Below, piece by piece: positions 15,261 to 36,810 of a stretch of 64,000 nucleotides of DNA (its first letter is position 1; the number at the start of each line of letters is the position of its first letter). The stretch covers positions 5,195-69,194 of the forward strand of contig JAFUAW010000037.1 of NCBI GenBank assembly GCA_017460485.1, in the 5' to 3' direction. The DNA is from Lachnospiraceae bacterium (GTDB lineage: Bacteria > Bacillota > Clostridia > Lachnospirales > Lachnospiraceae). The position numbers were made by a program, and so were the translations under genes. The notes under the pieces were generated by a model. The model saw only the letters and a program-made list of their open reading frames with translations, did no database searches and was not told where the DNA came from.

Positions 15261-15285
15261 GTTCAAATCTCCCATAAGTATACAA

Positions 15286-15313
15286 AATGGTGTCAACCAA
15301 TGTTGACACCATT
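15286..15313 (-). terminator. Rho-independent terminator candidate ending the left transcription unit
   Basis: A perfect 12-bp stem AATGGTGTCAAC / GTTGACACCATT with a 4-nt loop, followed on the minus strand by TTTTGT. It lies about 235 nt downstream of the methyltransferase stop. Confidence 0.5.
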
Positions 15314-18365: not shown

Positions 18366-18400
18366 AAATCCTCTCCAAAGCTATTACAAATAATATGCTT

Positions 18401-18907: not shown

Positions 18908-18932
18908 GTACCTCTATATTTTTTCATTATAT

Positions 18933-21363: not shown

Positions 21364-21368
21364 AATCT

Positions 21369-21599
21369 TTATGCCAGCTTATCTGCTACTATTCTTTTTA
21401 TATCGCCAATAGTATCCATATTAATGACTTCATCATAGACAAATTTGATGCTGAATTCCTTTTCCAACTGAAGAATCAAAGACATAGTAATTAACGAATC
21501 CCAATCCGTTACATTTTCAGGGCTCATATCATCCGTAACTTCTTCCGTTGTATCCCATTCCATTAACTCCCTGAATATCATCTCAATTTTTTCTTTCAT
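21369..21599 (-). CDS. Acyl carrier protein
   Basis: A 76-aa acidic protein with the phosphopantetheine-site context DWDSLITMSLI. Confidence 0.75.
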   Translation of the reverse strand: MKEKIEMIFRELMEWDTTEEVTDDMSPENVTDWDSLITMSLILQLEKEFSIKFVYDEVINMDTIGDIKRIVADKLA

Positions 21600-21618
21600 A
21601 ACATTCCCTCATCAATAA

Positions 21619-22350
21619 CTATTTTTTTTTACGCCCACCGGAAACAGGTATCAAAGCACCGGTAACAGAAGATGATTCTTCAGATATTAGATATCCTGCC
21701 AATGCTGCTATTTCCTGCGGCTTTATAATTCCTAACGGTTGTTTTTTTTCCAATTCTCCGATTATCTCATTACGATATTCCGGTATGATCGTCATCTCCG
21801 TATCAACATATGCCGGCATAACTGCATTTACTCGAATCTTGCGTTTCAAGAATTCCTTGGACATTGTTATGACAGCTGCATTCATCGCTGCCTTTGACAT
21901 CGAATATGCGCACATACCTTCTGTACAATCGAGTGCTGACATAGATGAGATTGCTACAATACTTGCACCATCCTTAGAGTATTTTTTTCTGGAAAAATGC
22001 TTGGCACATTCCACAAATCCGAATGCATTTGTTGCCATTGTCAGATTCAGATTCTCTCTGTCTATAATTTGAACTCCCTCCGAAACAGAAATTCCTGCGC
22101 AATATATCATTGCATCGTATTTGACCGCATGCTGTTCAGACCACTGAAATATAGTCTCTATCTGTTCTGATTCCATTAAGTCTGCAACAATATAATCTGC
22201 ATTTTCTCCCAAAGATGCAACTAACGATCTTAATCTCTTTTCATTTCTGGCAACTGCCACTATTCCGTATCCTTTATGATACAAGTATTCAACTATACTT
22301 TTTCCAATGCCTTGCGAAGCTCCCAGTACCAGACATGTTTTTTCTCTCAT
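21619..22350 (-). CDS. SDR family oxidoreductase (3-oxoacyl-ACP reductase-like)
   Basis: LVLGASQGIGKS (TGxxxGIG-type) and YSMSKAA (YxxxK). The ATG at 22350 has a GGGAGG RBS. Confidence 0.8.
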   Translation of the reverse strand: MREKTCLVLGASQGIGKSIVEYLYHKGYGIVAVARNEKRLRSLVASLGENADYIVADLMESEQIETIFQWSEQHAVKYDAMIYCAGISVSEGVQIIDRENLNLTMATNAFGFVECAKHFSRKKYSKDGASIVAISSMSALDCTEGMCAYSMSKAAMNAAVITMSKEFLKRKIRVNAVMPAYVDTEMTIIPEYRNEIIGELEKKQPLGIIKPQEIAALAGYLISEESSSVTGALIPVSGGRKKK

Positions 22351-22382
22351 ATCATGCCTCCCATGACACATCTTATCATCAC

Positions 22383-23411
22383 TTATATCTTATCTTCATC
22401 ATAATGATCACCCGTTTCCATTACAGGAAAAATATCACAAGTATCAATCGTTGTGTATATATATCCCCATGATAAACCAACGCCAAACCCGCTTATGAAA
22501 AATCGGCATGTATCTTTTGGTTGAAGCAGGTCCCTATTCACACATAGATTTAACAGTACTGAAGATCCTGATGTATTACCATACTCTTCAATCGAACGAA
22601 GTTCTTTTTCCGGTGGTATATTACACAGATCCACAATATTGTCCAGAATTAAGCCCTGTGCCTGATGAAAGGAGTAATAATCAATCATATCCTCCTGTAT
22701 GTTATACAGATTCTTAAATTGCTGAATCCCTTCTGTTACATCATTAATTGCGAATCTGAACACTTCCGGTCCATCCATAGAAGCCGGATTCCCCACGTAC
22801 TTGATAATTGCCTGAAACCCATTTCCGTCAGACATATTCATAAAATACAGATCATTATGTTCAACCTTTTCTAATAATATGGCCGTTGCCGCAGAACCAA
22901 AGAGCATATTATGGGTAATCATATCCTCTGTATAATTCTTCTCCGGATCAATTGCGCGTCCGGACGAATCTGACATAAGAAGCAGAGCCTGTGTATGGAC
23001 GTCACATGCCTGTAACAAAGCAGATACCGTCTGTACACCCACATTAAAGCTGGAACATCCAAGGTTCATATCATAGACAAGACAGTCCTTATCAAGACCT
23101 AATCTTTTATGTAGAAAGAACGCCGTAGATGGAAGCTGATAATTCGGAGCTTGTGTTATTAATATGCAGATTTTCACTTTATGAATATCTACACGTTTAT
23201 TCTCTATCAAATTAACCGCTGCAGCATATGCCAGGTCAGATGCTCGCTGTTCCTTTTTAACTACATGCCGCCTTTTAACACCGGTTAATTTAATCTGTTT
23301 TTTCACTCTTCTTGGATCCATTAAATCTGCATATTCCATATTGTCCTCTACCGTTGACGGAACAGCCGCAGTAATCCCCTGAATCTTTATGTTATCATAT
23401 CTTCCATGCAT
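22383..23411 (-). CDS. 3-oxoacyl-ACP synthase III-like (second copy in the left operon)
   Basis: NLGCSSF, FHQAQ and YGNTSGSS give an intact Cys-His-Asn context. Confidence 0.8.
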   Translation of the reverse strand: MHGRYDNIKIQGITAAVPSTVEDNMEYADLMDPRRVKKQIKLTGVKRRHVVKKEQRASDLAYAAAVNLIENKRVDIHKVKICILITQAPNYQLPSTAFFLHKRLGLDKDCLVYDMNLGCSSFNVGVQTVSALLQACDVHTQALLLMSDSSGRAIDPEKNYTEDMITHNMLFGSAATAILLEKVEHNDLYFMNMSDGNGFQAIIKYVGNPASMDGPEVFRFAINDVTEGIQQFKNLYNIQEDMIDYYSFHQAQGLILDNIVDLCNIPPEKELRSIEEYGNTSGSSVLLNLCVNRDLLQPKDTCRFFISGFGVGLSWGYIYTTIDTCDIFPVMETGDHYDEDKI

Positions 23412-23425
23412 AGAATTGCCATCTC

Positions 23426-23647
23426 CTATCTTAGAAAGTCAATCACATCCTGCACTGTCACAAAACTTGACAAGTCATTCCCCGTCAACATACGATTAAC
23501 CTTCTTTTTCACAATTGCCATCAAAGATAAACGGCTCAGAGAATCCCATTCCTCCAATTCTTCCAGGACCGTATCATTCGATATGGTACCCTCATCCAAA
23601 TCCATGGCATCCTCCAACCATTCAATTATTGTCTTTTCATCCATCTT
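23426..23647 (-). CDS. Acyl carrier protein (second copy in the left operon)
   Basis: MDEKTIIEWLEDAM...EEWDSLSRLSLMAIV. The ATG at 23647 sits 7 nt after a GGAGGA RBS. The longer track ORF (to 23752) overlaps the upstream SDR gene. Confidence 0.7.
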   Translation of the reverse strand, partial: KMDEKTIIEWLEDAMDLDEGTISNDTVLEELEEWDSLSRLSLMAIVKKKVNRMLTGNDLSSFVTVQDVIDFLR

Positions 23648-23648
23648 A

Positions 23649-24410
23649 TCATCCTCCATTCTTAATATGCCGTACATCACCAAGCATGCCACTTGACATC
23701 GGTATATGCGCTCCGGTGATATATTTCGCCTTATCTGAAAGTAAATATTCAATCAAATAAGCAACGTACTCCGGTTCAATCATTCCCATAGCATTTTCAT
23801 GTTCTATCTTCATCTCTTGGAGCATTGGCGTATTCACATAGGCAGGCATGATTGAGTTCACCCGAATTTCTCTGCGAACAAATTCCTTTGCCATTATCGT
23901 AGTATACGTATTGATCAAGGTCTTCGCTCCGGTATAAGCTGCCATTCCTCTTTTCTGGATTATTACTGACATGGAGGACATTCCCACTATACTTGCACCT
24001 CTGTTGGAATATTCTTTCCTTGCCATATATTTCCCTAGCATCAAATACGAGTTAGCGTGTACATCAATCATATCTTCCAGTATATCCGGCTCCATCTCTT
24101 TTACCGGAAGATTATTTGAATATCCTGCGCAATGCACCAGTCCGTCCAACATAAGATTACATTCCTTGCAATATATAAAGATATCTTCTATCCGATCCAG
24201 ATTCTTAAAATCGTAAATATAATATCTGGCATTCTCCCCCAATTCATTTACCAGCTTCTTTAATCTTTCTTCATTTCTTGCCACCAGAATTACATTATAG
24301 TGTTGTTCCGTCAAATATCTGGCTGCAGCTTCGCCAATTCCCGATGATGCACCTGTTATCAATACATTCTTACTCATATCCATATTCTTCCTTTGCCTTT
24401 TATCTATCAT
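23649..24410 (-). CDS. SDR family oxidoreductase
   Basis: VLITGASSGIGEAAA and YTGAKT (YxxxK). An ATGA overlap links it to the upstream gene. Confidence 0.8.
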   Translation of the reverse strand: MIDKRQRKNMDMSKNVLITGASSGIGEAAARYLTEQHYNVILVARNEERLKKLVNELGENARYYIYDFKNLDRIEDIFIYCKECNLMLDGLVHCAGYSNNLPVKEMEPDILEDMIDVHANSYLMLGKYMARKEYSNRGASIVGMSSMSVIIQKRGMAAYTGAKTLINTYTTIMAKEFVRREIRVNSIMPAYVNTPMLQEMKIEHENAMGMIEPEYVAYLIEYLLSDKAKYITGAHIPMSSGMLGDVRHIKNGG

Positions 24411-25408
24411 TTAATATAATTAGGACGATCTTGATCACTCATGCCGCGATATATATGAGCGGAAGATTTATGAAAACTATGGAAGTCCAAATCTACATTC
24501 TTCAGTTCATATGGTTCAAAATAATTCGGAATAATATTAGTATCATCCCTTTTTCTTAAGGTAAAGCCGGCTTTGCTCATAATCTCTCCAGATATACCAT
24601 GACAATAGATATCTGTATATTCGCAATTATGATCTTCCATAAAACGATCTATTGCTGTCCCAAATCCGCATAATGCCTGATCATCACCCAAATAATCCAC
24701 AATTCGAAAAACAATATGTCCATTAACAGCAATAAACCTGCCGATAACAGCCCCTTTATACTGTTCATTTCCTATTCGAAGCACTTCATATTGATAATAT
24801 GGATGTTCCTCATATCTGTGTTTGAGATATTCTTCACTCTCATACGGAACACGGTTCTGAAGAGAATCCCTATCCAACCATTCAAATATTTCATGAATAC
24901 AAGAAGATGTAATATAAGAACCTTGTTCGTTTGCAGGTATTATTATTTTATTTTCGATTTTTGCTACATAATATTTGTCCAGGTCTCTTAATCGATAGTA
25001 CTGCTGCAATTCGCCCATACAGTCTGGTGTCAGAATCTGCAATGCTTTTGCATAACGTTTTTCAAATCCAATACCAATAACATCCTGTACTCCCGGCATA
25101 TTTTCACAGTAATTGTCCAGTTCAAAGCTTAAATTGGAGAATTCACGATTCTTCTTAGTACATACCATTACAGTCGATATATATCTATTGGAAAGGTCAT
25201 AAGACATCGGGATATAACCAACGCTGCCATAGATTTGACCATCTTCTATATCCTCACCAAGGATATAGAAGACTTCTCCATTCCGTACGTGCTGCCACTC
25301 AAATAACTTACGGTCTCGTGCCAGAATATGATCCTTTTTCCAATAGATATCGATGAATTCCATAATCCTGGGAATATCTTCATATACTGCTCTTCGAATT
25401 GTAATCAT
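24407..25408 (-). CDS. GNAT-like N-acyltransferase-type two-domain protein (first gene of the left operon; paralog of 26989..27999)
   Basis: The N-terminus MITIRRAVYEDIPRIMEFIDIYWKKDHILA is GNAT-like. The protein is colinear with 26989..27999 down to the C-terminal DQDRP motif. The exact family was not recognised. Confidence 0.5.
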   Translation of the reverse strand: MITIRRAVYEDIPRIMEFIDIYWKKDHILARDRKLFEWQHVRNGEVFYILGEDIEDGQIYGSVGYIPMSYDLSNRYISTVMVCTKKNREFSNLSFELDNYCENMPGVQDVIGIGFEKRYAKALQILTPDCMGELQQYYRLRDLDKYYVAKIENKIIIPANEQGSYITSSCIHEIFEWLDRDSLQNRVPYESEEYLKHRYEEHPYYQYEVLRIGNEQYKGAVIGRFIAVNGHIVFRIVDYLGDDQALCGFGTAIDRFMEDHNCEYTDIYCHGISGEIMSKAGFTLRKRDDTNIIPNYFEPYELKNVDLDFHSFHKSSAHIYRGMSDQDRPNYIK

Positions 25409-25472: not shown

Positions 25473-25498
25473 GAATCGCGCCTGTCCAAGGCGGACTT
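25473..25498. repeat. IR-L: left copy of the perfect 26-bp inverted repeat GAATCGCGCCTGTCCAAGGCGGACTT
   Basis: It is the exact reverse complement of 26908..26933. Identity ends abruptly on both sides. Confidence 0.9.
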
Positions 25499-25519
25499 TA
25501 AAAAATGATAAACAAAAAT

Positions 25520-25537
25520 AGTTATATCCATATAACT
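25520..25537. repeat. 18-bp palindrome AGTTATAT-CC-ATATAACT inside the switch
   Basis: A perfect 8-bp dyad with a 2-bp centre, about 22 nt inside IR-L and downstream of the outward promoters. Confidence 0.6.
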
Positions 25538-25614
25538 GAATACAACTTTCCCGAAAACTATTTTTGTCTACATCCCTGCACCATTTTGTCGTCCTCCTTG
25601 ACTAACTACATAAT

Positions 25615-25641
25615 ATATCGGCATTCCTTTTAAAATACTTA
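25615..25641 (-). promoter_or_regulatory. Sigma-28 (SigD/FliA)-type promoter TAAG-N15-GCCGATAT facing the left operon
   Basis: The -10 element matches the Bacillus SigD consensus GCCGATAT at 8 of 8 positions. The -35 is TAAG, as at the fliC and flaG promoters in this window. Confidence 0.6.
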
Positions 25642-25654
25642 ATCTAATAAAAAA

Positions 25655-25684
25655 AGAATAGCACATAAAATAAGTGTATGTCAA
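25655..25684 (-). promoter_or_regulatory. Sigma-A-like promoter TTGACA-N18-(TGC)TATTCT facing the left operon
   Basis: A consensus -35, an 18-nt spacer and a TG extended -10 with a 4-of-6 hexamer. It lies immediately upstream of the sigma-28 motif. Confidence 0.4.
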
Positions 25685-25817
25685 TGAATTGAACATATTG
25701 TTAAAGGCAAACGTGCACAATAAACGCTGATTCTATTTCCTTTTCGGAAATTGAAGTGTTAAATATAGTATTTGGTTCACAGCAGCCATAATACAATAGA
25801 AGAAAAGAGGAATAATC

Positions 25818-26909
25818 ATGAATAATCAATCAACTAATCTATCTATCCAACTTCAATTTTTGAAAGACCCGACATGCATGACGTTGTCAGATTATGCCGA
25901 GCAATGGCTTACCATTTATGCCGCCAAACATTTGGAGCGAACGTCCTATATCCGATATGAACAGGTTATCCATTATAATATTCTTCCATATCTGGGGGAC
26001 ATGTCGATCTCAGAGATTAAGCCTTATCACTTGGAATGCTTTTTTTCAACACTTTCCGAACAGGACCTCAGATATGACGGTCATACCGGCGGATATTCTC
26101 ACGGTACGCTATGTAAAATAAAGACTGTTTTATCATCTATGTTTTCAACAGCAGTACAATGGGAATTGATAGAGCATAATCCCTGCAGTAAAATCAAGCT
26201 TCCAAAACGCACAGACATTAAATCTATTAAGTGCTATACAGCAGAACAAATGAAAAGCTTTATCGAATTTCTGTATGATATATATTCCTGCTCGAATGCC
26301 ATGCAATATCAATATTTGGTACTTTATTTGATTGCAATTTACGGCGGCCTCAGAAGAGGCGAATTACTGGGACTGACATGGGAAAAAGTAGATTATACAA
26401 CCGGTACCATCTATATTAATCAGACAATCAATCGAGTGGATGGAAGTTATCTGATCAAATCTCCCAAAACAAAAAGTTCCGTTCGAATAGTAACTTTGCC
26501 TCTTTCTGTTATGAATATTCTTCGCATATATCAGATAAAGCAGGATAATTATCGAATTCAAATGGCAGATGGCTGGCAGGGAAACAATTGGTTATTTATT
26601 CAGAAAAACGGCACTAATATGAGCATCGGAACTCCCTATGCTAAATTCCGTCAATTGATCAAATTATATAATCAGCAAACCAACGCTACTATATATCTTC
26701 CAGAGCTCGGACTACATAGTTTAAGACATACAAACGCATCTCTGCTTATAAGTTCCAATCTCGTTGATGCCCAGACTGTCGCACACAAGTTAGGGCATTC
26801 AAATGTAACAACTACTATGAAATATTACATTCATGCGTATGAGGAAAACGAGAGGAAGACAGCTGCGGTGTTGGAAGAAGTATTACATTTGCCGGGGAGT
26901 AATATATAA
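25818..26909 (+). CDS. Tyrosine site-specific recombinase (phage-integrase family)
   Basis: An N-terminal SAM-like core-binding domain and a catalytic domain with all signature residues in context: GGLRRGE (Arg), HSLRHT (His-x-x-Arg), LGHSN (His) and MKYYIH (Tyr). Confidence 0.85.
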   Translation: MNNQSTNLSIQLQFLKDPTCMTLSDYAEQWLTIYAAKHLERTSYIRYEQVIHYNILPYLGDMSISEIKPYHLECFFSTLSEQDLRYDGHTGGYSHGTLCKIKTVLSSMFSTAVQWELIEHNPCSKIKLPKRTDIKSIKCYTAEQMKSFIEFLYDIYSCSNAMQYQYLVLYLIAIYGGLRRGELLGLTWEKVDYTTGTIYINQTINRVDGSYLIKSPKTKSSVRIVTLPLSVMNILRIYQIKQDNYRIQMADGWQGNNWLFIQKNGTNMSIGTPYAKFRQLIKLYNQQTNATIYLPELGLHSLRHTNASLLISSNLVDAQTVAHKLGHSNVTTTMKYYIHAYEENERKTAAVLEEVLHLPGSNI

Positions 26910-26933
26910 GTCCGCCTTGGACAGGCGCGATTC
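26908..26933. repeat. IR-R: right copy of the 26-bp inverted repeat
   Basis: AAGTCCGCCTTGGACAGGCGCGATTC overlaps the recombinase stop codon by 2 nt. Confidence 0.9.
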
Positions 26934-26988
26934 AATATCTTGTATAAAGAAAGCTGTTTTGTGTACCGGTTTTGGTTGGAACAAATAT

Positions 26989-27999
26989 ATGATTACAATT
27001 CGAAGAGCAGAATTTGAAGATATTCCACGAATAATGGAATTCATAGATACTTACTGGAAAAAAGGGCATATTTTGGCAACGAACCGCTCTTTTTTCGAGT
27101 GGCAGTTCGCAGATGAAGGTATGGTTAATTTAGTTCTGGCAGAAGATAAAACAGCTCAACACATTTATGGAATAAATGGTTATATAAGATATAATCAATC
27201 AGCAACACCCGATATAACAGGTTGTATGTGGAAAGCTCTTAAGACCATTGAATATCCTATGCTCGGATTGAATTTTGGAGAGATTTTATATCAAACTACA
27301 CATGCCAGATATAACATAGGCATAGGATTGAATTCCAGGTCACGACAATACGAAAAACTCAATGGTGCATATGTTGCAAAAATGAATCATGCATACAGAT
27401 TAGGTAATTCAAAAGATTTTCATATTGCTGATATCAAGGATTTTAAAAATAATCCTTATAAAAAAACAGAAAGCAAACTGGAATCAATCACATCTATAGA
27501 ACAATTCAAAAAAAGAATTCCTGTTAGTTTGTTGAGCAGTATTATCCCATACAAAGATTATTATTATATAGAACATAGATACTTCAAACATCCTATATAC
27601 AACTATAATTTATATTCACTAATAATATCCGGGAAACCGATTCCAGCAGTTTTTGTTGTTCGGGAAATCACCGCCCTCGGAAGAAAATGCGCTAAAATCG
27701 TTGATTATTTTGGTGAAGAAAAATGGATCGGACATTCAGGAAAAGCAATTGATGAACTTATTTCTCTTAATAATTATGAATTCATCAGTTTTTACTGTTT
27801 GGGGATCGACAACTCTTACCTGAAAGAAAGCGGCTTCTCTTTCATTGAGGAAAACGATATAAATATCATACCATGTTATTTTGAACCTTTTGAAAAGAAA
27901 AATATTGATATTTATGCTGTTATGATTCCTGAAATCAAGGAAAAAACAAGATTGTTCCTTGGGGATGGTGATCAAGACAGGCCAAGCAAAATTACATAG
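26989..27999 (+). CDS. GNAT-like N-acyltransferase-type two-domain protein (first gene of the right operon; paralog of 24407..25408)
   Basis: MITIRRAEFEDIPRIMEFIDTYWKKGHILA. The first 22 nt are identical to the left paralog. The track start at 26833 would run through IR-R and the recombinase 3' end, so I rejected it. Confidence 0.5.
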   Translation: MITIRRAEFEDIPRIMEFIDTYWKKGHILATNRSFFEWQFADEGMVNLVLAEDKTAQHIYGINGYIRYNQSATPDITGCMWKALKTIEYPMLGLNFGEILYQTTHARYNIGIGLNSRSRQYEKLNGAYVAKMNHAYRLGNSKDFHIADIKDFKNNPYKKTESKLESITSIEQFKKRIPVSLLSSIIPYKDYYYIEHRYFKHPIYNYNLYSLIISGKPIPAVFVVREITALGRKCAKIVDYFGEEKWIGHSGKAIDELISLNNYEFISFYCLGIDNSYLKESGFSFIEENDINIIPCYFEPFEKKNIDIYAVMIPEIKEKTRLFLGDGDQDRPSKIT

Positions 28000-28015
28000 A
28001 AGGGGAGATAATAAA

Positions 28016-28819
28016 ATGAAAATTGCTGAAATTTTGGAATTATGTAATTCAATTAAACGAGAGAAAAAAAAATATTATACCAATTATTATATGACCTATA
28101 ATTCTTCTGACAGTGACTTCATAGTAATACAGAATGAGGGGACAATTGTGTTTCTTGTTAAAGAAGAGTTTTTTTACAGATGCTTTTTCTTAAGCAATAA
28201 TCTAGAAACCCTGATAAAGTGTTTATCAGAAGTTCCCCAAGACTCAATTCTGGATTTTATCGAAAAAGCAGAGAATTGTTCTTTACTGAATACATTTCAG
28301 AAATCAGGATTTAATTCCTACGCGACATACCTAAGGGTATCATCCCCTATCCCACCGAAACCTTATAAAAAAGATAAAATTGAACTATTGTGTGAGAAAC
28401 TATATAACGATAAGCTTGGACAGCGCGCCACGGAATCAGACATTCCTCAATTACGTCAGATATTTCTGGATGTATTTGATGTGAACTGTGATGGAATTTT
28501 AACGGTAGAAAAACTAAGGCGCTCTATACAAAACGGGACAGTTTGGATTTATAAAGCAGATGAAAAAATCTGTACAGTATACATATATCAGGTAGAGGGT
28601 AAAAAGCGCTATGGTAATTTAACTTATAATTGTCTCAGTGCAGATTATTTATATAGTGTATGCAGAAAAGCAAATGAATTATCAGCCAAAGAGCACGATT
28701 TTATTCTTCACTACGGATGGGTTAATGAAAAAAATAAAAAAATAGGACGTACATTAAACACAACCAGTGCGCAGGGATACGACGGTGTCCGCAACTATAT
28801 CTTTCGAAAGGAGAATTAA
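28016..28819 (+). CDS. Hypothetical protein (possibly an acyltransferase-fold protein)
   Basis: MKIAEILELC follows a GGGGAG RBS. I recognised no secure motif. Confidence 0.3.
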   Translation: MKIAEILELCNSIKREKKKYYTNYYMTYNSSDSDFIVIQNEGTIVFLVKEEFFYRCFFLSNNLETLIKCLSEVPQDSILDFIEKAENCSLLNTFQKSGFNSYATYLRVSSPIPPKPYKKDKIELLCEKLYNDKLGQRATESDIPQLRQIFLDVFDVNCDGILTVEKLRRSIQNGTVWIYKADEKICTVYIYQVEGKKRYGNLTYNCLSADYLYSVCRKANELSAKEHDFILHYGWVNEKNKKIGRTLNTTSAQGYDGVRNYIFRKEN

Positions 28820-28821
28820 AA

Positions 28822-29040
28822 ATGAACGAAAAGGAAAAACTGGAAATCATCGCAGAAAGTGTTGAAATGGAGACAGAGGAATTATCAAAGGAGATGGTTC
28901 TGGAAGATCTGGAAAACTGGGATTCTGTTGCAGTATTAACAATAATTGCAGCCATTAGCGACCGACTAGGCCGTTATCCCAGTGCTCAAGATATACTGGC
29001 ATTCAGAACAGTTGGCGATTTGATGAATTACATGGACTAA
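28822..29040 (+). CDS. Acyl carrier protein
   Basis: A 72-aa acidic protein with LENWDSVAVLTIIA (Ser attachment context). Confidence 0.7.
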   Translation: MNEKEKLEIIAESVEMETEELSKEMVLEDLENWDSVAVLTIIAAISDRLGRYPSAQDILAFRTVGDLMNYMD

Positions 29041-29088
29041 ATGCTGATTGGCAGTTGCAAAAAGGTAATTGGATTTAAGGTGATACGT

Positions 29089-29838
29089 ATGGAACTTTTA
29101 AAAGACAAAGCTATTATTGTGACAGGCGCATCTTCCGGACTGGGAAGATCAACTGCTATTGCAATCAGCAAAGAAGGCGGTCGCTTAATTCTGATCGGTC
29201 GAGACGAAACAAGGCTGTCCGAAACTAAAAACATGCTCGAATATTCTGATAACCATATTGCCATTCCTTTTGATTTATTAGAATTCGAAAAATATGACCA
29301 ATTATTTCAGAGAATCAAAGAAGAAAATATTATATTAAATGGAATGGTTCATTGTGCCGGTTTTACAAGAATACTGCCTATTAGGGCTTTAACCACACAG
29401 AATATGAATGAATTACTTGCCATTCATTATATTTCCTTTGTAAATCTTGTCAAATTCTATTCTAAAAAAGGAATGAATGCTGGAGGAAGTATTGTTGGAA
29501 TTTCTGCAATCAATGCTCACATACCGCAGAAATGCATGACTGCATATGCCTCTGCAAAGGCAGCTATGGAGACTGCATGCCGTACAATGTCCATTGAATT
29601 AATCGAAAAAAATATTCGGATTAACTCTGTCGTTGTTGGCAGCATGAGTACGGAAATGTCTAAAGATGTAGCCAGTTCAATAGAAGGAGTATCTTCTTCT
29701 TATGTCAATCCTGTTTCAAGACAGCTGATTCCAACTGTAACTGCAGACGTGATTTCCGGATCAATTATGTTTTTGTTAAGCGATTTGTCATCTTATATGA
29801 CCGGAAGAGAATTATATGCGGATGGAGGTTTATTATAA
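29089..29838 (+). CDS. SDR family oxidoreductase
   Basis: AIIVTGASSGLGRS and YASAKAA (YxxxK). The ATG at 29089 follows an AAGGTG RBS. Confidence 0.8.
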   Translation: MELLKDKAIIVTGASSGLGRSTAIAISKEGGRLILIGRDETRLSETKNMLEYSDNHIAIPFDLLEFEKYDQLFQRIKEENIILNGMVHCAGFTRILPIRALTTQNMNELLAIHYISFVNLVKFYSKKGMNAGGSIVGISAINAHIPQKCMTAYASAKAAMETACRTMSIELIEKNIRINSVVVGSMSTEMSKDVASSIEGVSSSYVNPVSRQLIPTVTADVISGSIMFLLSDLSSYMTGRELYADGGLL

Positions 29839-30689
29839 TGAAACACGATGGAAACAAAGTTATTTTTCATACGAACAAAGGTGTCATTACATATAATGAT
29901 ATAGTTTCTGCATTATATAGGCTTGGGGCCGATCAATGCGATGTATTATTTGTTCATTCAGATATTTCATTTGGACAATTAGATCCTTCTGTCAAAAGGA
30001 AAGAGTTAAAAGAACTACTGCTGGATGCGTTAATGGAAATGAATGTAAAAACTCTTATGTTTCCTACATTTACTTTTAGTTTTTGCAACAAAGAAGACTA
30101 TGATGTTGAACATTCTGTTACTGCCATGGGCATGCTGCCTGAATATGTCAGGAACCGAGAGGATGCATATCGAACCGATGATCCCATTCTTTCTGTAGCA
30201 ATAATCGGAGACCGCTCAGGCTTTGAAAAAATGATAGGACGCTCTTCTTGCGGAACAGGAGGAATCTTTCATCAACTTCATATCAGCGGCAAGAAAGTAA
30301 AATTTCTATTCTTTGGAACTTTGGTAACTCACTGCTTCACTTTTATGCATTATATTGAAGAAATAAAACAAGTGCCCTATCGATATGCACGCCCATTTGA
30401 TGGAACCATTATTCAAAATGGCATTCAAACTCCGAAAACCGTGGATGTATATGTTCGGTATAAGGATGTAGGAGCAACATTACCTAAAGATTTTACATCC
30501 TATATGTTAGAACATGAGATCATGAAGAAAGAGGAATTGGGTATGTCCTCCATTTCAATTGTAGATGAAAGAAGCAGTTATGAGTATATTTGTTCATTAA
30601 TTGATCATGATCCATATGTATTTTCTGTTTTACCTGAAGACGGAGAATTAGTAAAAGAATATAAATATGGCAATATCGTTTCAATGTGA
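29838..30689 (+). CDS. AAC(3)-family N-acyltransferase-like protein
   Basis: The N-terminus (ITYNDIVSALYRLGADQCDVLFVHSDISFGQL) and length match my recollection of the aminoglycoside 3-N-acetyltransferase fold family. The context suggests an amino-sugar N-acyltransferase. Confidence 0.5.
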   Translation: MKHDGNKVIFHTNKGVITYNDIVSALYRLGADQCDVLFVHSDISFGQLDPSVKRKELKELLLDALMEMNVKTLMFPTFTFSFCNKEDYDVEHSVTAMGMLPEYVRNREDAYRTDDPILSVAIIGDRSGFEKMIGRSSCGTGGIFHQLHISGKKVKFLFFGTLVTHCFTFMHYIEEIKQVPYRYARPFDGTIIQNGIQTPKTVDVYVRYKDVGATLPKDFTSYMLEHEIMKKEELGMSSISIVDERSSYEYICSLIDHDPYVFSVLPEDGELVKEYKYGNIVSM

Positions 30690-30702
30690 GAAAGGAAAAA
30701 TA

Positions 30703-30933
30703 ATGAGAGAAACAATACTTAATATATTAAAAGATATCAGACCTGAATTTGATTTTGAAAGCAGTAATAACTTTATTGAAGACGGCTTTTTGGATTCATT
30801 TGATGTCGTTACAGTCATTTCAGAATTAGAATTAAAATACAATATTGTAATTGATGGTCTAGCAGTTATTCCCGAAAACTTCGAATCATTAGATTCCATT
30901 TGTGAGCTGGTAAAAAAGAGTGGTGAAAAATAA
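30703..30933 (+). CDS. Carrier protein, DltC-like
   Basis: A 76-aa protein with EDGFLDSFDVVTVISELE. The LDS(F/L)D context is typical of D-alanyl and peptidyl carrier proteins. Confidence 0.65.
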   Translation: MRETILNILKDIRPEFDFESSNNFIEDGFLDSFDVVTVISELELKYNIVIDGLAVIPENFESLDSICELVKKSGEK

Positions 30934-31991
30934 TGGATTTTCATTTTCAAAACAAACAGATTACCGGTGTATTATCAATTCTTCCGGAAACAGAATACCG
31001 CATGGAAGATGAAGTTATAGATCCCAACGACAGCAAGGTAAAAAGATTGCAGAAGGTGATCGGATACGGTTCTCGCCGCCGGGTAAAAGGCAATACCTGT
31101 ATGTCTGATTTATTATTATATGGACTACGGCATTTAATCAGCTCCCAGCAACTCAATCCGGATGATATAGGTGCTATTATTGTATCCACTCTCTGCGAAG
31201 ACTATTTGTTACCGTCCCTTGGTTGTATATTGCAAGGCGAGCTGGGTTTAGAAAATGATGTATATTGTATGGATACACCACAGGCTTGTGCCGGATATGT
31301 AACAGGATTAATTCATGCCTTTTTACTGCTAGATCATATGCCTAATAAAAAGGTCATTGTATGTACAGGAGAAATCTTAAACCGTAAATCCGATCCAAAT
31401 GAAGCAAAATATGAACATCCATCCTTTGGAGGTGATATTGCTAATATTACCATAGTAGAGAATTGCCATTCTTCTCGGGATATCTATGCAAATTATTTCA
31501 CAGACGGAAGCAGACGTAATGCCTTAATTATTGAAGACGGTGGTTTTCGTAATCCAATGACAGCAGAAAAACTTAAAATGCAGACAAATAATCTTCCATG
31601 TATGGGAGTATCTATGGATGGTTCCGGGGTGTTTAATTTTGTTCAGAAAGAAGTTCCTCCCTCTATCTTTGAACTTTCAAAACAAGCCGGTGTCACAGTA
31701 GATGACATCGATTGGTTTTTATTCCATCAGCCGAACAAATTTATGCTCCAAAAATTGGCAGGTGCATTAGGAGTTCCTTTCAGAAAAGTACCTATGAAAC
31801 TGACAGAAACACTTGGCAATTCCGACTCAGGTACAATTCCTGCTATTATGACTACTGAAGCGGCAGATTCTTTGTTATCCCATAATAACTTATGTTGTCT
31901 ATCCGGATTTGGAGGCGGTCTTACGTGGACCTCTATTATTATGGACATCGGCAATTTAGACTTTTGTGAATGTATCACATCCGACTTATAA
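30933..31991 (+). CDS. 3-oxoacyl-ACP synthase III-like
   Basis: PQACAGY, FHQPNK and LGNSDSGT give an intact Cys-His-Asn context. A TAATG junction links it to the upstream gene. Confidence 0.75.
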   Translation: MDFHFQNKQITGVLSILPETEYRMEDEVIDPNDSKVKRLQKVIGYGSRRRVKGNTCMSDLLLYGLRHLISSQQLNPDDIGAIIVSTLCEDYLLPSLGCILQGELGLENDVYCMDTPQACAGYVTGLIHAFLLLDHMPNKKVIVCTGEILNRKSDPNEAKYEHPSFGGDIANITIVENCHSSRDIYANYFTDGSRRNALIIEDGGFRNPMTAEKLKMQTNNLPCMGVSMDGSGVFNFVQKEVPPSIFELSKQAGVTVDDIDWFLFHQPNKFMLQKLAGALGVPFRKVPMKLTETLGNSDSGTIPAIMTTEAADSLLSHNNLCCLSGFGGGLTWTSIIMDIGNLDFCECITSDL

Positions 31992-32037
31992 ATATCATTA
32001 TTACTATATTAAGCAACACATATCAAGGGAGCTAATT

Positions 32038-33564
32038 ATGAAAAAAAATTGGATTGATGTTTTTCAAAAAACAGTAGAAAAATATAAGGATGCCATCGCG
32101 GTAGTGCACAATAACAAGTCTGCAACTTTTGGAGAAATCCGGCATCGCGCATTATGTATTGCAGCCGAGTTAAACAGCAGGGCAGACGAAATTAACCGCC
32201 CTATAGTAGTACTTCTGCCCAAATCAATAGAAGTAATTTATGCAAATATTGGTATTATGTATAATCATAATATCTTTTCCAATTTAGATGTAAAAATGCC
32301 CAAGGAACGTCTAGGTAATATTTTGAACTGCCTAAAGCCAATTGGCATCATTACAGATACGAATGGATTAAACTTAGTCGATATTAATCCCGACATGTTT
32401 GTTATAAACTTAGACCACATGGATTGGAATTATAATTATGATATTAACTCTATTCTCTGTAAGTTAGAAAAACAAATTGATACTGATCCCTTTTGTATCA
32501 TTAATACATCCGGCTCAACCGGGACGCCAAAAGGCGTGGTACTGAATCACAAAAGTTTTTTCGATTTTATGGACTGGTCTTTAGATGTATTCCATTTCAC
32601 ATCTCAGGACATTATTGGCTCTCTCTCTCCCGTAATATTTGATATATATGAATATGAACTAACCTTAATGATGACAGTCGGTGCAAAAATCGTTTTATTA
32701 GATGCGGGATTGGCAGTTTTTCCGGCTAAACTTATATCAGCTGTAGCTGAACATAAAGTTACATTCATGTTCTGGGTTCCTACGATTATGGTTAATATTG
32801 CCAATATGGATATACTGTCAAGAATACCTCTCCCTTCTGTCCGTACCATCTGGTTTGCCGGAGAAGTATTTCCTACAAAACAATTTAACTATTGGAAATG
32901 TAACTTACCGGAAACTGTATTTGCCAACCTATATGGTCCCATTGAAATCACTCTTGACTGTATCTATTATATTGTCGATCGTGATTTTAATGATCAGGAT
33001 ACATTACCAATCGGTATACCATGCAAAAATACTGACATTTTACTCTTAAATGACTCTGATCAGATATGTCAATCTGACGAAGAAGGCGAAATCTGTGTTA
33101 GAGGAACTTCCCTTGCAATGGGATACTACAATAATCCAGAAAAAACATCTGCAGCATTCGTTCAAAATCCATTAAACAATTCGTACCCTGAATTAATCTA
33201 CCGAACAGGAGATATAGGAGTAAAGTCTTCCACAGACAATCTTATTTATTTCAAGGGAAGAAAAGATAGCCTAATCAAACACATGGGATATAGAATTGAA
33301 CTGTCGGAAATAGAACATATTATGGTAAATGAATTGAAAATTGTAAAAAACTGTTGTGTTATCTACAATTCTTCTAAAAAGGAGATACATGTTTTTTATG
33401 AAAAGAAAGAATTAAGCACTAGAGAAATGCGGGATAAGCTTTTATCAGTTCTTCCTAAATATATGATCCCGACAGTTTGGACAGAGTTAGATGAATTACC
33501 AAGAAATACGAATGGTAAAATTGACCGGCATAAACTCAGTTGTATATCAAATAACAAAGAATAA
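32038..33564 (+). CDS. Adenylation enzyme, DltA / NRPS A-domain-like (amino acid or aryl acid--carrier protein ligase)
   Basis: NTSGSTGTPKGV, GYYNNPEKT, YRTGD, GRKDSLIKHMGYRIELSEIE and PRNTNGKIDR. The ATG at 32038 follows an AAGGGAG RBS. Confidence 0.75.
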   Translation: MKKNWIDVFQKTVEKYKDAIAVVHNNKSATFGEIRHRALCIAAELNSRADEINRPIVVLLPKSIEVIYANIGIMYNHNIFSNLDVKMPKERLGNILNCLKPIGIITDTNGLNLVDINPDMFVINLDHMDWNYNYDINSILCKLEKQIDTDPFCIINTSGSTGTPKGVVLNHKSFFDFMDWSLDVFHFTSQDIIGSLSPVIFDIYEYELTLMMTVGAKIVLLDAGLAVFPAKLISAVAEHKVTFMFWVPTIMVNIANMDILSRIPLPSVRTIWFAGEVFPTKQFNYWKCNLPETVFANLYGPIEITLDCIYYIVDRDFNDQDTLPIGIPCKNTDILLLNDSDQICQSDEEGEICVRGTSLAMGYYNNPEKTSAAFVQNPLNNSYPELIYRTGDIGVKSSTDNLIYFKGRKDSLIKHMGYRIELSEIEHIMVNELKIVKNCCVIYNSSKKEIHVFYEKKELSTREMRDKLLSVLPKYMIPTVWTELDELPRNTNGKIDRHKLSCISNNKE

Positions 33565-33584
33565 TATTGGCAATAGGAATTACT

Positions 33585-34448
33585 ATGCGTTTTGAAAAAA
33601 TAATTGTTATCGGAACCGGAAAAATAGCATGCAGCTGTATAGAATCATTGGTTTCTATCCTATCTAAGGAGAGGCTGTGTGCGCTTGAAGTATATAAGCA
33701 GTCATTATCCATGTTAAACAAAATATGCGCCATGCACAGTATTGAGTATTTGGAGCTAATCCAAAGAAATGATATTCATGCATGGCTTAAAGAGTATACC
33801 CGTAACTGTAGTGTATTAATTATCAGCGCAAATAACCGTTATATATTTCCTCCGGAGTTTATTAATGAGAAAAATATAGAAATAGTTAATTTTCATTACT
33901 CATTGCTCCCGGCATATAGAGGAATGAATATACCAACATGGGTTATTTTCAATAATGAAAGCCAGACAGGGATAACCTGGCATTATATTACACAGCACAT
34001 TGATCAGGGAAAAATAATATCCCAAAAATCTATAGATATTAATCCTACAACAACTGCGTTCGATATTACAAGAATGGGGATGCAGTTAGGCGCGGATTCT
34101 TTCCGTGAGTTTATTGGAGAACTTCTGAACCATCATATCAACGGTATCGAGATAAACAGCACAAACAACGATAGAATATACTATAAATCGGATCTTCCAA
34201 TGAATGGATTTTTAGATATAAATGCTTCAATGGATCATATCGACAGATTACTCCGCAGTTTTGATTATGGGGGGCTTCCTTTAGTACCCAGATTACAAAC
34301 TGTTGTTAATGATATGCTTTATTGCGTAAACAAATATCAAATAAAGAGTACTACTCTCTTCGTTCAGCGTCAAATTACAGTATCTGACTGTATTTTCTCA
34401 ATTTCTGAAGGAAACAAAACAATTATTCTTTTCTGCAGCCATATATAA
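33585..34448 (+). CDS. Formyltransferase-domain protein (Fmt/ArnA N-terminal-like)
   Basis: VNFHYSLLPAYRGMN plus a later HIDQGKII give the Asn-His...Asp formyltransferase signature. Confidence 0.65.
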   Translation: MRFEKIIVIGTGKIACSCIESLVSILSKERLCALEVYKQSLSMLNKICAMHSIEYLELIQRNDIHAWLKEYTRNCSVLIISANNRYIFPPEFINEKNIEIVNFHYSLLPAYRGMNIPTWVIFNNESQTGITWHYITQHIDQGKIISQKSIDINPTTTAFDITRMGMQLGADSFREFIGELLNHHINGIEINSTNNDRIYYKSDLPMNGFLDINASMDHIDRLLRSFDYGGLPLVPRLQTVVNDMLYCVNKYQIKSTTLFVQRQITVSDCIFSISEGNKTIILFCSHI

Positions 34449-34555
34449 TGATCATGTAACTCTTACAAACGCAAATTTGCAAATCTCTCCAAAATAGACT
34501 AAAATAGATATGTAAATATAGAACCAATTATAAAGTACTAATTGAGGATAAGACC

Positions 34556-35605
34556 ATGCAGATTGAACACCGTAAAATTGGACCCGAATATCCTCCTCTT
34601 GTCATTGCCGAGATCGGCATTAATCATGAGGGATCCTTGGATACTGCCAAGAAAATGGTAGATGCTGCCGCGCGCTCCGGCGCAGAGATCATCAAGCATC
34701 AGACACATATTGTTGAAGATGAGATGTCACCTGCTGCAAAAAAAGTAATTCCGGGCAATGCAGATGTATCCATCTATGATATTATGGCTCGATGCGCACT
34801 TTCTGAAGAAGAGGAAATGGAATTAAAACAATATACGGAATCTAAGGGACTCATTTTTTTAAGTACTCCTTTTTCCCGTGCTGCTGCCGACCGTTTGGAG
34901 CGAATGAATGTATCCGCATATAAGATTGGATCAGGGGAGTGTAACAACTATCCCTTGATCGAACATATTGCAAAGTTTGGCAAACCAATGATCGTATCAA
35001 CCGGTATGAACAATATTGCCAGCATTCGAAAAACCGTTGATATTCTCAAACAATACCATATAGATTTTGCTCTCATGCACTGTACTAACCTATACCCCAC
35101 CAAACCGGAATTCATTCGTCTCGGTGCTATGATAGAGCTGATGAAGGAATTCCCGGATGTTCCGGTCGGTTTGTCTGATCATAGTCTGAATAACAATGCC
35201 TGCCTTGCGGCAACCGCACTGGGAGCAAGTATTCTAGAGCGGCATTTTACGGACAGTATGTACCGGCCGGGACCGGACATCATATGTTCGATGGATCCTG
35301 TTGCTTTAAGCGAACTGATCCATGGTTCCGAAGAAATCTTCCTTATGCGTGGAGGCAGCAAATCTGCGCTCCCTGAAGAACAGGTTACGATTGATTTTGC
35401 CTTTGCTACTGTCGTTGCTATTCAGAATATTACAAAAGGGGAACCTTTCACTGAACAGAATCTATGGGTAAAGCGTCCCGGAACAGGCGAGATCTTAGCA
35501 GAATTCTATCCGCAATGTCTCGGGCAGACAGCCAGACGGAACATCCATGCCGGAGAGCATTTGTCAGCTTCTGATGTTGTCATCTGTTCACCAGCTAATA
35601 TCTGA
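34556..35605 (+). CDS. neuB: N-acylneuraminate-type nonulosonic acid synthase (NeuB/LegI/PseI family)
   Basis: [36 protein letters not shown] and a C-terminal SAF-like tail. I cannot assign sub-specificity by eye. Confidence 0.8.
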
Positions 35606-35655
35606 TCCTTATATCTCAAGATTAAGATCTATTATGAAACACAGGAGAGATTACA

Positions 35656-36810
35656 TTGAATATAAAGACTACAAATAAAAGAATCATTTTTCTGACCGGG
35701 ACACGTGCTGACTACGGTAAGATGAAGTCTTTGATCCTGGCCTTATCTGAGAATCCGGAATTTGAAGTGTATATTTTTGCTACCGGAATGCACATGCTGG
35801 CGACCTATGGTTCTACCTATAAAGAGATCATTAAGGATGGCTTTCCGAACATCTATACCTATGTGAATCAGAATACCAATACCGGTATGGATCTGGCTCT
35901 ATCCAACACAATTACCGGATTCAGCAATTATATATCTGAACTGCATCCTGATGGAATTGTTGTACACGGAGACCGGCTTGAAGCACTTGCAGGTGCAATT
36001 GTTGGTGCATTTCATAACATTCGCGTATTTCATATCGAGGGCGGTGAGATTTCAGGGACAATAGATGAATCCATCCGCCATGCAATTACAAAGTTCTCAC
36101 ATTTCCATTTTGTAGCAAATGAAAGTGCCAAAAGACGAATTCAACAGCTTGGAGAACCGGCATCACACATCTTTGTGATCGGATCTCCCGATATTGATAT
36201 CATGTATTCCAAGAATCTGCCAACATTGTCAACTGTAACGGACTACTATGAGATTCCTTATTCACAATACATCATTTTTATGTATCATCCAGTTACAACA
36301 GAATATGAACAGATTGCGTCTCATATCCAATCTGTATTGAATAGTCTGATAGAATCTGGGAAGGACTATGTTATTATCTATCCAAACAATGATCCGGGAA
36401 GCAAAGAAATCATTCAGGCATATCATAATATAGAAGCCACGGGCAATCCTCATTTTCGAATCATTCCATCTATGCGGTTTGAATATTTTTTGGCTCTGCT
36501 TAAAAATGCCGACTGCATAATCGGCAATTCCAGCGCAGGAATCCGGGAAGCCAGTATATACGGAATTCCGGCAATAGATATCGGAAGCAGGCAACAGGGA
36601 CGTTACAATCCGGAAACCACTCCACATATCATCCATATTGATGAAACAGACGATATTGTAACTACTATAAGGGAAGCATGTTCTCTATCAATTGCTCCTT
36701 TTTCCGATTACGGAAAAGGCAATAGCAATCAGCTTTTCGCTGATATTATTTCAGATGATACCATATGGAACATGGATATTCAAAAACACTTTATTGATAT
36801 GGATTATTGA
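35656..36810 (+). CDS. neuC: UDP-N-acetylglucosamine 2-epimerase (hydrolysing), NeuC/LegG-like
   Basis: RIIFLTGTRADYGKMKSL...VHGDRLEALAGA...HIEGGEISGTIDE is the NeuC signature. A TTG start follows a GGAGAG RBS. Confidence 0.8.
   Translation: MNIKTTNKRIIFLTGTRADYGKMKSLILALSENPEFEVYIFATGMHMLATYGSTYKEIIKDGFPNIYTYVNQNTNTGMDLALSNTITGFSNYISELHPDGIVVHGDRLEALAGAIVGAFHNIRVFHIEGGEISGTIDESIRHAITKFSHFHFVANESAKRRIQQLGEPASHIFVIGSPDIDIMYSKNLPTLSTVTDYYEIPYSQYIIFMYHPVTTEYEQIASHIQSVLNSLIESGKDYVIIYPNNDPGSKEIIQAYHNIEATGNPHFRIIPSMRFEYFLALLKNADCIIGNSSAGIREASIYGIPAIDIGSRQQGRYNPETTPHIIHIDETDDIVTTIREACSLSIAPFSDYGKGNSNQLFADIISDDTIWNMDIQKHFIDMDY

Follow-up and report, generated by a model that had tools for sequence, protein, structure and literature searches.

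The right operon of a 64-kb stretch of DNA from an uncultured gut Lachnospiraceae bacterium (contig JAFUAW010000037.1, assembly GCA_017460485.1; the whole stretch, 64,000 nucleotides long, is called the window below) comprises nine genes at 26989-34448, which are separated from an oppositely directed left operon by a short invertible DNA segment. Inversion of this segment happens in natural populations, and both orientations exist. In the window, a flagellar locus adjoins a Maf-type flagellin glycosylation island, in which maf genes, nonulosonic acid genes and the flagellin gene are clustered. On the proposition that this island has two alternative, phase-variable tailoring modules and that the right operon is one of them, we stand evenly balanced. 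A more far-reaching proposal is put forward tentatively. The inverton, by means of a sigma-28 promoter, would switch the flagellin glycan between two chemically different, carrier-built N-acyl decorations. The right module would then be the founding example of a cross-phylum cassette making an amino-acid-primed, polyketide-like acyl group, which an enzyme of the aminoglycoside 3-N-acetyltransferase (AAC(3)) fold would place on the nonulosonic acid from an acylated acyl carrier protein (ACP).

Invertible segment and its putative promoter

The elements of the switch are the following:

25473-25498: left inverted repeat (IRL), GAATCGCGCCTGTCCAAGGCGGACTT, a perfect 26-bp inverted repeat with 26908-26933
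26908-26933: right inverted repeat (IRR), the perfect 26-bp partner of IRL
25499-26907: invertible segment of 1409 bp flanked by IRL and IRR, holding the recombinase gene and a putative promoter
25818-26909, plus strand: tyrosine recombinase gene, 363 aa (Phage_integrase E 4.7e-22; Phage_int_SAM_3 E 1.8e-12)
25613-25643, minus strand: sigma-28/SigD-type promoter motif ATTAAGTAT-N13-CCGATATAT, inside the invertible segment

The 26-bp repeat has just these two copies in the window, the chance expectation being 0, and the stop codon of the recombinase gene overlaps IRR. In an ENA contig (L001) the 1409-bp segment is exactly reverse-complemented relative to the window, and the flanks match the window with 100% identity, the left one along 5.7 kb and the right one along 13.8 kb. 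A Logan contig (L002) begins exactly at 26908, the first base of IRR. The stretch from repeat to repeat (25473-26933, 1461 bp) was assembled as a stand-alone contig (L014) in 4 samples, which is the usual signature of both orientations coexisting within one sample. The initial annotation of this DNA had expected an antigenic switch here, and a DNA inversion between the two operons is indeed seen in both orientations.

The promoter motif of the segment has its counterpart at the flagellin gene, where ATTAAGTAT-N12-CCGATATAT stands at about 50042-50071 on the minus strand, ~105 nt before the start codon. The -35 and -10 elements of the two are identical, and the spacers are N13 and N12, respectively. 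The motif is of the SigD/sigma-28 type. In its strict form (TAAA-N13-17-GCCGATAT) the SigD pattern has no match in the window, the real sites carrying TAAG at -35; the loose motif TAAG-N14-18-CCGATA occurs at two sites only in the 64 kb, and these are the segment and flagellin promoters. The gene of the anti-sigma-28 factor, flgM, is present in the window. A homologous operon of another Lachnospiraceae genome (L010), which is not under a switch, has a SigD-consensus site, TAAA-N16-GCCGATAT, at the equivalent place ~130 nt upstream.

In the orientation of the window, the segment promoter reads through IRL toward the left operon, and in L001 it reads through IRR toward the right operon. Since it is the left operon that the promoter faces, the right one is most likely OFF in the window, barring read-through from the recombinase gene. 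Flipping of the segment would, we infer, decide which module is co-transcribed with the late flagellar genes.

The inversion could also be real and yet select no operon, each operon having a constitutive promoter of its own and the segment controlling the recombinase gene only or being left over from a mobile element. The promoter assignment comes from the motif, and the recombinase gene reads toward the operon opposite to that faced by the promoter, so that transcription may reach both. We nevertheless regard this explanation as improbable: the spacers from IRR to the right start codon (55 nt) and from IRL to the left one (64 nt) show no promoter-like sequence, the segment promoter copies that of flagellin, and the unswitched operon in L010 has its SigD-consensus site at the equivalent place. 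A sigma-70 scan around the switch gave nothing better than shuffled sequence.

Two small features of the segment may be mentioned separately. An 8-codon mini-ORF, MVQGCRQK (25558-25584, minus strand), follows closely downstream of the segment promoter and has a strong ribosome-binding site, AAGGAGG; being inside the invertible DNA, it would lead whichever operon is ON, and either a leader peptide or a chance occurrence is possible. Each 26-bp repeat holds a small hairpin, CGCCT-TGGAC-AGGCG (25479-25493 and 26912-26926). On the left side a T-run comes after it, and a terminator-like element was flagged there. This hairpin could be the core site of the recombinase or an attenuator of read-out.

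Right operon

The nine genes of the right operon are co-directional, and the initial description of their order and domain content was reproduced with Pfam and NCBIfam. They are given here with the two genes that follow them:

26989-27999, plus strand: acyltransferase of tandem Gcn5-related N-acetyltransferase (GNAT) fold, 336 aa (AlphaFold2 and Foldseek; no Pfam match)
28016-28819, plus strand: divergent GNAT-like protein, 267 aa (family profile; Treponema homologue)
28822-29040, plus strand: ACP, 72 aa (PP-binding E 1.9e-6; NCBIfam ACP models match)
29089-29838, plus strand: FabG-like short-chain dehydrogenase/reductase (SDR) of ketoreductase type, 249 aa (adh_short_C2 E 1.6e-41; KR E 9e-12)
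29838-30689, plus strand: AAC(3)-fold acyltransferase, 283 aa (Antibiotic_NAT PF02522 E 1.4e-20)
30703-30933, plus strand: second carrier protein, 76 aa, with the phosphopantetheine-site motif FLDSFD (weak NCBIfam DltC/AmcB/ACP matches)
30933-31991, plus strand: dedicated 3-ketoacyl-ACP synthase III (KAS III), 352 aa (ACP_syn_III_C E 1.3e-20)
32038-33564, plus strand: stand-alone adenylation (A) domain of nonribosomal peptide synthetase (NRPS) type, 508 aa (AMP-binding E 9e-54; TIGR01733 275 bits)
33585-34448, plus strand: sugar-type N-formyltransferase, 287 aa (Formyl_trans_N E 5.6e-18)
34556-35605, plus strand: NeuB/LegI-type nonulosonic acid synthase (NeuB_NnaB model 389 bits, PseI 229)
35656-36810, plus strand: NeuC/LegG-type hydrolysing UDP-sugar 2-epimerase (NeuC_NnaA model 412 bits), the last gene of the plus-strand block

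The intergenic gaps of 0-48 nt and two 1-nt overlaps among the nine genes fit a single operon. Orthologue lengths were used to refine four start codons, those of the SDR (29089), second carrier (30703), adenylase (32038) and formyltransferase (33585). The longest open reading frame of the SDR begins at 29041, its orthologues being of 249 aa, and its sequence has the motifs TGASSGLG and YASAK. No terminator was found in the 107-bp gap between the formyltransferase gene and neuB, so the right transcription unit probably extends through neuB-neuC to 36810. The stop codon of neuC abuts that of a convergent GT2 gene at 36812.

Recurrence of the cassette in other genomes

A six-gene core of the right operon (ACP, SDR, AAC(3)-like protein, A domain, second carrier and right-operon-type, or R-type, KAS III) was found together in seven further loci from three phyla, and the gene set is thus not a chance arrangement. 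The hosts are Lachnospiraceae, Lysinibacillus, Aliarcobacter and Treponema, and the 267-aa GNAT-like protein and a metallo-beta-lactamase (MBL)-fold hydrolase are usually included. With the window counted, ACP, SDR and AAC(3) genes are adjacent and in the same order in 8/8 loci, and in all eight the second carrier adjoins the A domain or KAS III. The R-type KAS III always accompanies the A domain and second carrier, even where a KAS III of the left-operon type (L-type) is also present. The neighbourhoods of five of the related loci are these:

L007, Aliarcobacter cryaerophilus: maf, neuB, pseB, pseC, pseF
L008, Lysinibacillus: DegT, PglD, an orthologue of the formyltransferase, MBL hydrolase, phosphopantetheinyl transferase (PPTase), flaG-fliD-fliT-fliS
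L009, Treponema: pseB, pseC-like and pseH-like genes
L010, Lachnospiraceae: a single long operon that combines left-type with right-type genes, tandem GNAT first
L011, Lachnospiraceae: acetyl-CoA carboxylase carboxyltransferase inside the cluster, csrA directly upstream, TagF-like Glyphos_transf gene

A homologue search had been proposed as a check of the first description, and the cassette does recur across phyla, three of the seven related loci (L007, L008, L009) having it next to maf, pse or fli genes. In Lysinibacillus the formyltransferase orthologue is located between the A domain and carrier genes, which makes formylation of a carrier-bound amino acid possible, as by the F domain of LgrA. 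Homologues of the MBL hydrolase encoded at 12985-13677 in the window belong to the cassette at four loci, namely those of Lysinibacillus (39% identity, E 4e-50), Aliarcobacter and Treponema and L011. In the Aliarcobacter locus (L007, 2086-3450) an MBL hydrolase is fused to a GNAT domain of the 267-aa family; this fusion indicates a functional link between the two cassette components.

Flagellin need not be the target of the cassette: a capsule, wall polymer or secreted small molecule, for instance, could be decorated instead, and the place of the cassette in the island would then be incidental. Three Lachnospiraceae loci (L004/L011, L005, L006) have neither maf nor neuB within 10 kb, L005 is set among phosphonate genes and L011 has the TagF-like gene. 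We nevertheless give this explanation a small chance. In the window, maf genes stand on both sides of the operon, neuB-neuC come next after it and a putative flagellin-type promoter serves it; elsewhere, three other phyla or orders have the cassette adjoining maf, pse or fli genes, and csrA is directly upstream in L011. Moreover, DltB/DltD or Wzx/Wzy-type genes are not found in the Pfam annotation of the window reading frames.

Two of the Lachnospiraceae loci have peculiarities of their own. In L005 (Lachnoclostridium UBA6475; 917-5621, 17050-18885) the cassette is flanked by genes for phosphoenolpyruvate mutase, a phosphonopyruvate decarboxylase-like protein, an aminotransferase and a nucleotidyltransferase, which suggests a glycan also carrying phosphonate. 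In L011 a tyrosine recombinase gene immediately precedes csrA and the cassette and is enclosed by a 28-nt inverted repeat (3945-3972/5488-5515, 93% complementary); this is possibly a second inverton, and no sigma-28 motif was seen inside this inverted-repeat segment.

Adenylase, carriers and KAS III

The adenylase was aligned to the A domains of LgrA, its FDIYEYE and NGKIDR motifs corresponding to FDxS and NGKVDR there. The specificity code, read with the GrsA residue numbering, is D235 I236 Y239 F278 W299 A301 L322 L330 D331 K517, that is, DIYFWALLDK. The presence of Asp235 and Lys517 indicates an alpha-amino acid as the substrate, and the bulky aromatic/aliphatic pocket suggests a small side chain. 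The inspection of pocket residues recommended at the outset thus gave a code of amino-acid type, from which the amino acid itself is not nameable. Nearly the same code, DI[YFH]FWALLDK, is found in L006, Lysinibacillus and Treponema and thus in three phyla; two other variants, DIQYMGVVNK and DIQFMAAVDK, exist. The score against TIGR01733 (275 bits, cut-off 317) is close to the cut-off and below it.

In the initial annotation, the adenylase and 76-aa carrier had been taken for a DltA/DltC-like pair activating an amino acid. Activation of an amino acid is supported by Asp235 and Lys517; the likeness to DltA/DltC is one of resemblance only. The adenylase scores 220 bits against TIGR01734 (cut-off 560) and about 242 against PRK04813 (cut-off 476), and the carrier matches DltC with E 1.4e-5 and 25 bits, the cut-off being 68. 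Orthologues of the second carrier carry PF00550. Teichoic-acid D-alanylation by a true DltA/DltC pair was rejected given these scores under the curated cut-offs and the lack of dltB (MBOAT) and dltD in the Pfam annotation of the window. Both systems consist of a stand-alone adenylating enzyme and a small dedicated carrier with the DS(F/L)D motif, but the pair in the window is embedded with KAS III, SDR and AAC(3)-like genes. Glycine specificity, to which the top PDB match to LgrA (301 bits) had pointed, was dropped as well, since this score sums two A domains (144 + 155).

The Cys-His-Asn triad of the KAS III is intact in comparison with the FabH-like structure 4efi (QACAG/GCSG, FHQPN/FHQAN and GNSDS/GNTSC). 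The enzyme has both the ACP_syn_III and the ACP_syn_III_C domain. It falls below the cut-offs for housekeeping FabH, with 152 bits against 249 for PRK09352 and 124 against 292 for TIGR00747. To judge from its sequence, it belongs to a dedicated clade distinct from the L-type enzymes. PqsD and the BioZ-type 3-oxopimeloyl-ACP synthase are among its solved relatives. With PqsD, BioZ and the KAS III enzymes of type II polyketide synthase starter units, it has in common the FabH fold and Cys-His-Asn triad, and a special primer is predicted. Compared with the KAS III enzymes primed by groups other than acetyl, the aminoacyl-carrier primer of the window enzyme is a prediction, and its identity to any characterised enzyme is low.

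Transferases

Three added candidates for N-acyl or N-formyl transferases had been counted in the first description. The number of candidates rises to four with the 267-aa protein as a probable divergent GNAT.

The 336-aa protein has no Pfam match, and its AlphaFold2 model (mean predicted local distance difference test score, pLDDT, 95) is that of a tandem-GNAT fold. Foldseek matched this model to 7q3a, MAB_4324, N-myristoyltransferases, Eis2 and VipF (E ~5e-9, TM ~0.5, probability 1.0). The family has more than 275 members, mostly from metagenome-assembled genomes of Lachnospiraceae and Eubacterium, and none carries a Pfam domain. The protein is a paralogue of that encoded by the first gene of the left operon (34% identity).

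The 267-aa protein is homologous to a 282-aa Treponema GNAT with Acetyltransf_1 (E 2e-11). Its family profile has members in 6/7 related loci, one with Pfam Acetyltransf_1 and one (Aliarcobacter) fused to the MBL domain, and 5/69 family members match GNAT Pfam families, weakly. The AlphaFold2 model is poor (pLDDT 61, 7 sequences); its Foldseek matches are all GNATs, with E 5e-3 or weaker. The protein is a candidate for a very divergent GNAT-like enzyme.

The AAC(3)-like protein matches PF02522 with 74 bits (cut-off 25), and the structure matches of its family profile are limited to AAC(3), YokD and FrbF (E 1e-4 to 5e-3). Its orthologues show ~40% identity in four phyla, and by these profile matches the protein is a deep branch of the Antibiotic_NAT fold. 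An identity as an aminoglycoside-resistance AAC(3) was ruled out by a score of 28 bits against NCBIfam NF033082 (AAC_3), for which the curated cut-off is 270. Single-sequence PDB searches with the 336-aa, 267-aa and AAC(3)-like proteins gave nothing useful, the last having no match at E<0.01.

The formyltransferase (PF00551, 66 bits) has the catalytic motifs NFHYSLLP and IDQG. Its best solved relatives are WbkC (GDP-perosamine N-formyltransferase, 2e-22, ~83 bits), QdtF, WlaRD and ArnA; matches to PseJ (9e-8, 35 bits) and the LgrA F domain (E 3e-7) are weaker. With WbkC, QdtF, WlaRD, the N-terminal domain of ArnA and PseJ it shares the Formyl_trans_N fold and the HxSLLP and Asp motifs. It is closest to nucleotide-sugar N-formyltransferases, and an NDP-amino sugar may be its substrate; the earlier view of this Fmt-like protein as a sugar-amine enzyme agrees with this.

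Proposed route and its alternatives

In the route preferred here, a single hybrid acyl chain is made. The A domain would activate a small alpha-amino acid and load it onto the 76-aa carrier. The dedicated KAS III would use this aminoacyl thioester as a primer and condense it with malonyl-ACP on the 72-aa ACP, and the resulting beta-keto group would be reduced by the FabG-like SDR. The gamma-amino-beta-hydroxyacyl group could then be moved by the AAC(3)-fold enzyme from ACP to an amine of a nucleotide-sugar or nonulosonate precursor. The N-formyltransferase would formylate the remaining amine, either on the sugar or on the new acyl chain, and the tandem GNAT and 267-aa GNAT may serve in further N-acylation or capping. 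NeuC and NeuB would finish the nine-carbon sugar, and a CMP-transferase followed by the Maf paralogues would bring it to flagellin. This arrangement is preferred because it finds a use for all the conserved parts, the R-type KAS III occurs exclusively in linkage with an A domain and carrier, and a ketoreductase is present in every locus. The carboxyltransferase in L011 fits the need for a malonyl extender.

The main alternative is that two separate N-acyl groups are made. A FabH/FabG cycle using acetyl-CoA and malonyl-ACP would produce 3-hydroxybutyryl-ACP, from which the AAC(3)-like enzyme would acylate one amine; the aminoacyl group of the A domain and carrier would be passed by a GNAT to another amine or to the hydroxybutyryl group, and the formyltransferase would cap the amino group. 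The genes do form two sub-blocks, ACP-SDR-AAC(3) and carrier-KAS-A, and four transferases suffice for several separate transfers. Furthermore, 3-hydroxybutyryl and formyl groups are established N-acyls of pseudaminic acid (Pse5Ac7Hb, Pse5Hb7Fm and Pse5Ac7Fm; PMC13576459). However, the partners of the R-type KAS III are always the A domain and second carrier and not ACP-SDR, the enzyme forms a distinct clade (25-27% identity to the L-type), and in eight loci the genes are found together as one unit. On balance, we consider the two-group arrangement rather unlikely.

The KAS III-like protein might also be a non-condensing transacylase that takes the aminoacyl group off the 76-aa carrier and passes it to the 72-aa ACP or straight to the sugar. 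KAS III-like acyltransferases occur in aminocoumarin and other natural-product pathways. The module has two carriers and one KAS III-like enzyme, and the family takes unusual primers, as PqsD and the BioZ-type enzyme among the solved relatives illustrate. The full decarboxylative Cys-His-Asn triad is retained, however, and the invariably present ketoreductase-type SDR would be left with no substrate; the carboxyltransferase in L011 likewise speaks for condensation. Transacylation is accordingly given little credence.

Several points weigh against the proposal of a switched, amino-acid-primed module, that is, against the single-chain route and its control by the inverton. Each chemical step is read from sequence, and to our knowledge DIYFWALLDK matches no specificity code. 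A free gamma-aminoacyl thioester tends to lactamise, and an N-capping step must therefore be assumed. No DegT-type aminotransferase, PPTase, PseI or second nonulosonate synthase is found among the window genes (1-64000). NeuB is the sole nonulosonate synthase of the window, despite the presence of PseB, PseF, a PseH-like GNAT and a PseG-like GT28 protein; judging by gene content, the remaining sugar-pathway genes must be elsewhere, or the pathway is hybrid. With neuB under the control of the switch, the left-ON state would have no synthase, although a sigma-70-like site in the gap before neuB may give neuB-neuC expression of their own and so resolve this difficulty. The sigma-28 assignment of the segment promoter comes from motif identity, and read-through from the recombinase gene could express whichever operon this gene faces. 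Finally, the three loci that lack maf and neuB, together with the phosphonate setting of L005, make other acceptors possible.

Left operon

15547-25408, minus strand: left operon with tandem GNAT, two SDRs, two KAS III enzymes, AMP-ligase, carriers and others

The small carrier proteins are encoded at 23426-23644 and 21369-21599, and the operon also includes a 404-aa methyltransferase and proteins of 168 aa and 415 aa with no confident Pfam domain. As stated in the initial annotation, the parts shared by the two operons are rearranged and strongly diverged: paralogues are 25-34% identical and the gene order is different, the right KAS III being 25-27% identical to those of the left operon. The left AMP-ligase has no Asp235 and is thus not of the amino-acid type. 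The left operon looks like a two-round, carboxylic-acid-primed version of the right-operon logic.

Comparison with known systems

Genes for ACP, ketoreductase, KAS III or AMP-ligase are known among maf, pse and flagellin genes, their role being unassigned and a "liposugar" having been speculated; such are orfB-D of Pseudomonas aeruginosa PAK (ACP, 3-oxoacyl-ACP synthase and reductase), the Aeromonas group II islands (ACP, 3-oxoacyl-ACP reductase, AMP-dependent synthetase, LuxE, LuxC), the Enterobacteriaceae islands (Acp, FabG, CaiC, LuxC/E, Fmt) and Campylobacter jejuni (acpP2, Cj1308) (PMC4020848, PMC7874193, PMC4875605, PMC6338021). Compared with these islands by gene content, the right module is richer by an A domain of amino-acid type and the carrier that goes with it, a KAS III of a dedicated clade, a transferase of the AAC(3) fold and a pair of unusual GNAT-like proteins. 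LuxC/LuxE are absent from it, and there are two alternative versions under an inverton. Formylated pseudaminic acid, Pse5Ac7Fm, is a known natural product (PMC13576459).

In the switch region, short inverted repeats, a tyrosine recombinase, a putative promoter in the flipped DNA and mixed orientations recall known invertons. The capsule invertons of Bacteroides are invertible promoters. In Clostridioides difficile there is a flagellar ON/OFF invertible switch with RecV (PMC5386303). Unlike in these two systems, the recombinase gene of the window is inside the segment, the putative promoter is of the sigma-28 type, and the choice would be either/or between two operons, not ON/OFF of one.

The N-acyl group on the legionaminic acid derivative of Clostridium botulinum flagellin is reportedly amino-acid derived, as Twine et al. 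are said to have described in 2008. The O-glycosylation of this flagellin with a legionaminic acid derivative is Maf-dependent (PMC11339370). In the open-access literature, no report was found of an A-domain/KAS III/AAC(3) cassette or of an inverton toggling two flagellin-glycan tailoring operons.

Among the antigens and TLR5 ligands of the gut microbiota, the flagellins of Lachnospiraceae are dominant. If the proposal is true, the acyl-decoration switch would give a commensal an equivalent of the phase-variable flagellin glycans found in Campylobacter and could affect antibody and innate recognition. The cassette also offers a testable hypothesis for the unexplained "fatty-acid-like" genes of flagellin glycosylation islands. 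Its confirmation would add two new activities, namely the priming of a KAS III by an aminoacyl carrier and the acylation of a sugar from acyl-ACP by an enzyme of the AAC(3) fold.

Other features of the window

The flagellar genes flgM, flgN, flgK, flgL-like, fliW, flaG, fliD and fliS and the gene of a 267-aa flagellin are on the minus strand. The same strand encodes glycosyltransferases, PseB, the PseH-like GNAT, PseF, a second CMP-transferase and a polysaccharide deacetylase. The plus-strand block runs from the tyrosine recombinase gene (25818-26909) through the nine-gene right operon (26989-34448) to neuB and neuC (34556-36810). Further features are as follows:

7889-9724, 39012-40874, 40900-42561, 42562-44400 and 44376-46130, minus strand: five Maf (MptE-like) paralogues by Pfam, the first being furthest left
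49134-49937, minus strand: flagellin, 267 aa, Flagellin_N and Flagellin_C with the variable domain nearly nil
980-2128: PseG-like GT28 protein
12985-13677, minus strand: MBL-fold hydrolase, a possible shared cassette partner encoded apart from the right operon, with homologues inside the cassette elsewhere

Five Maf flagellin glycosyltransferase paralogues in one island could match several nonulosonate donors, including those of both switch states. On a flagellin as small as this one (267 aa), any glycan would be placed on a minimal exposed surface. An Rfam scan of the whole window matched no family.

The GC skew at 26000-36000 is positive in the plus-strand block from the recombinase gene to neuC only and negative in the rest of the window. 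This is attributed to the coding strand there being plus; an old inversion or insertion of the whole block may be another cause.

The island is interrupted by an AAA_14/DUF4143 gene (11718-12941, plus strand) and an AAA-ATPase_like/PDDEXK_9 gene (13674-15296, minus strand), which lie between the left operon and the deacetylase and CMP-transferase genes. Members of the AAA-ATPase/PDDEXK_9 family, whole or as fragments, also adjoin the homologous cassettes in L009, L010 and L011.

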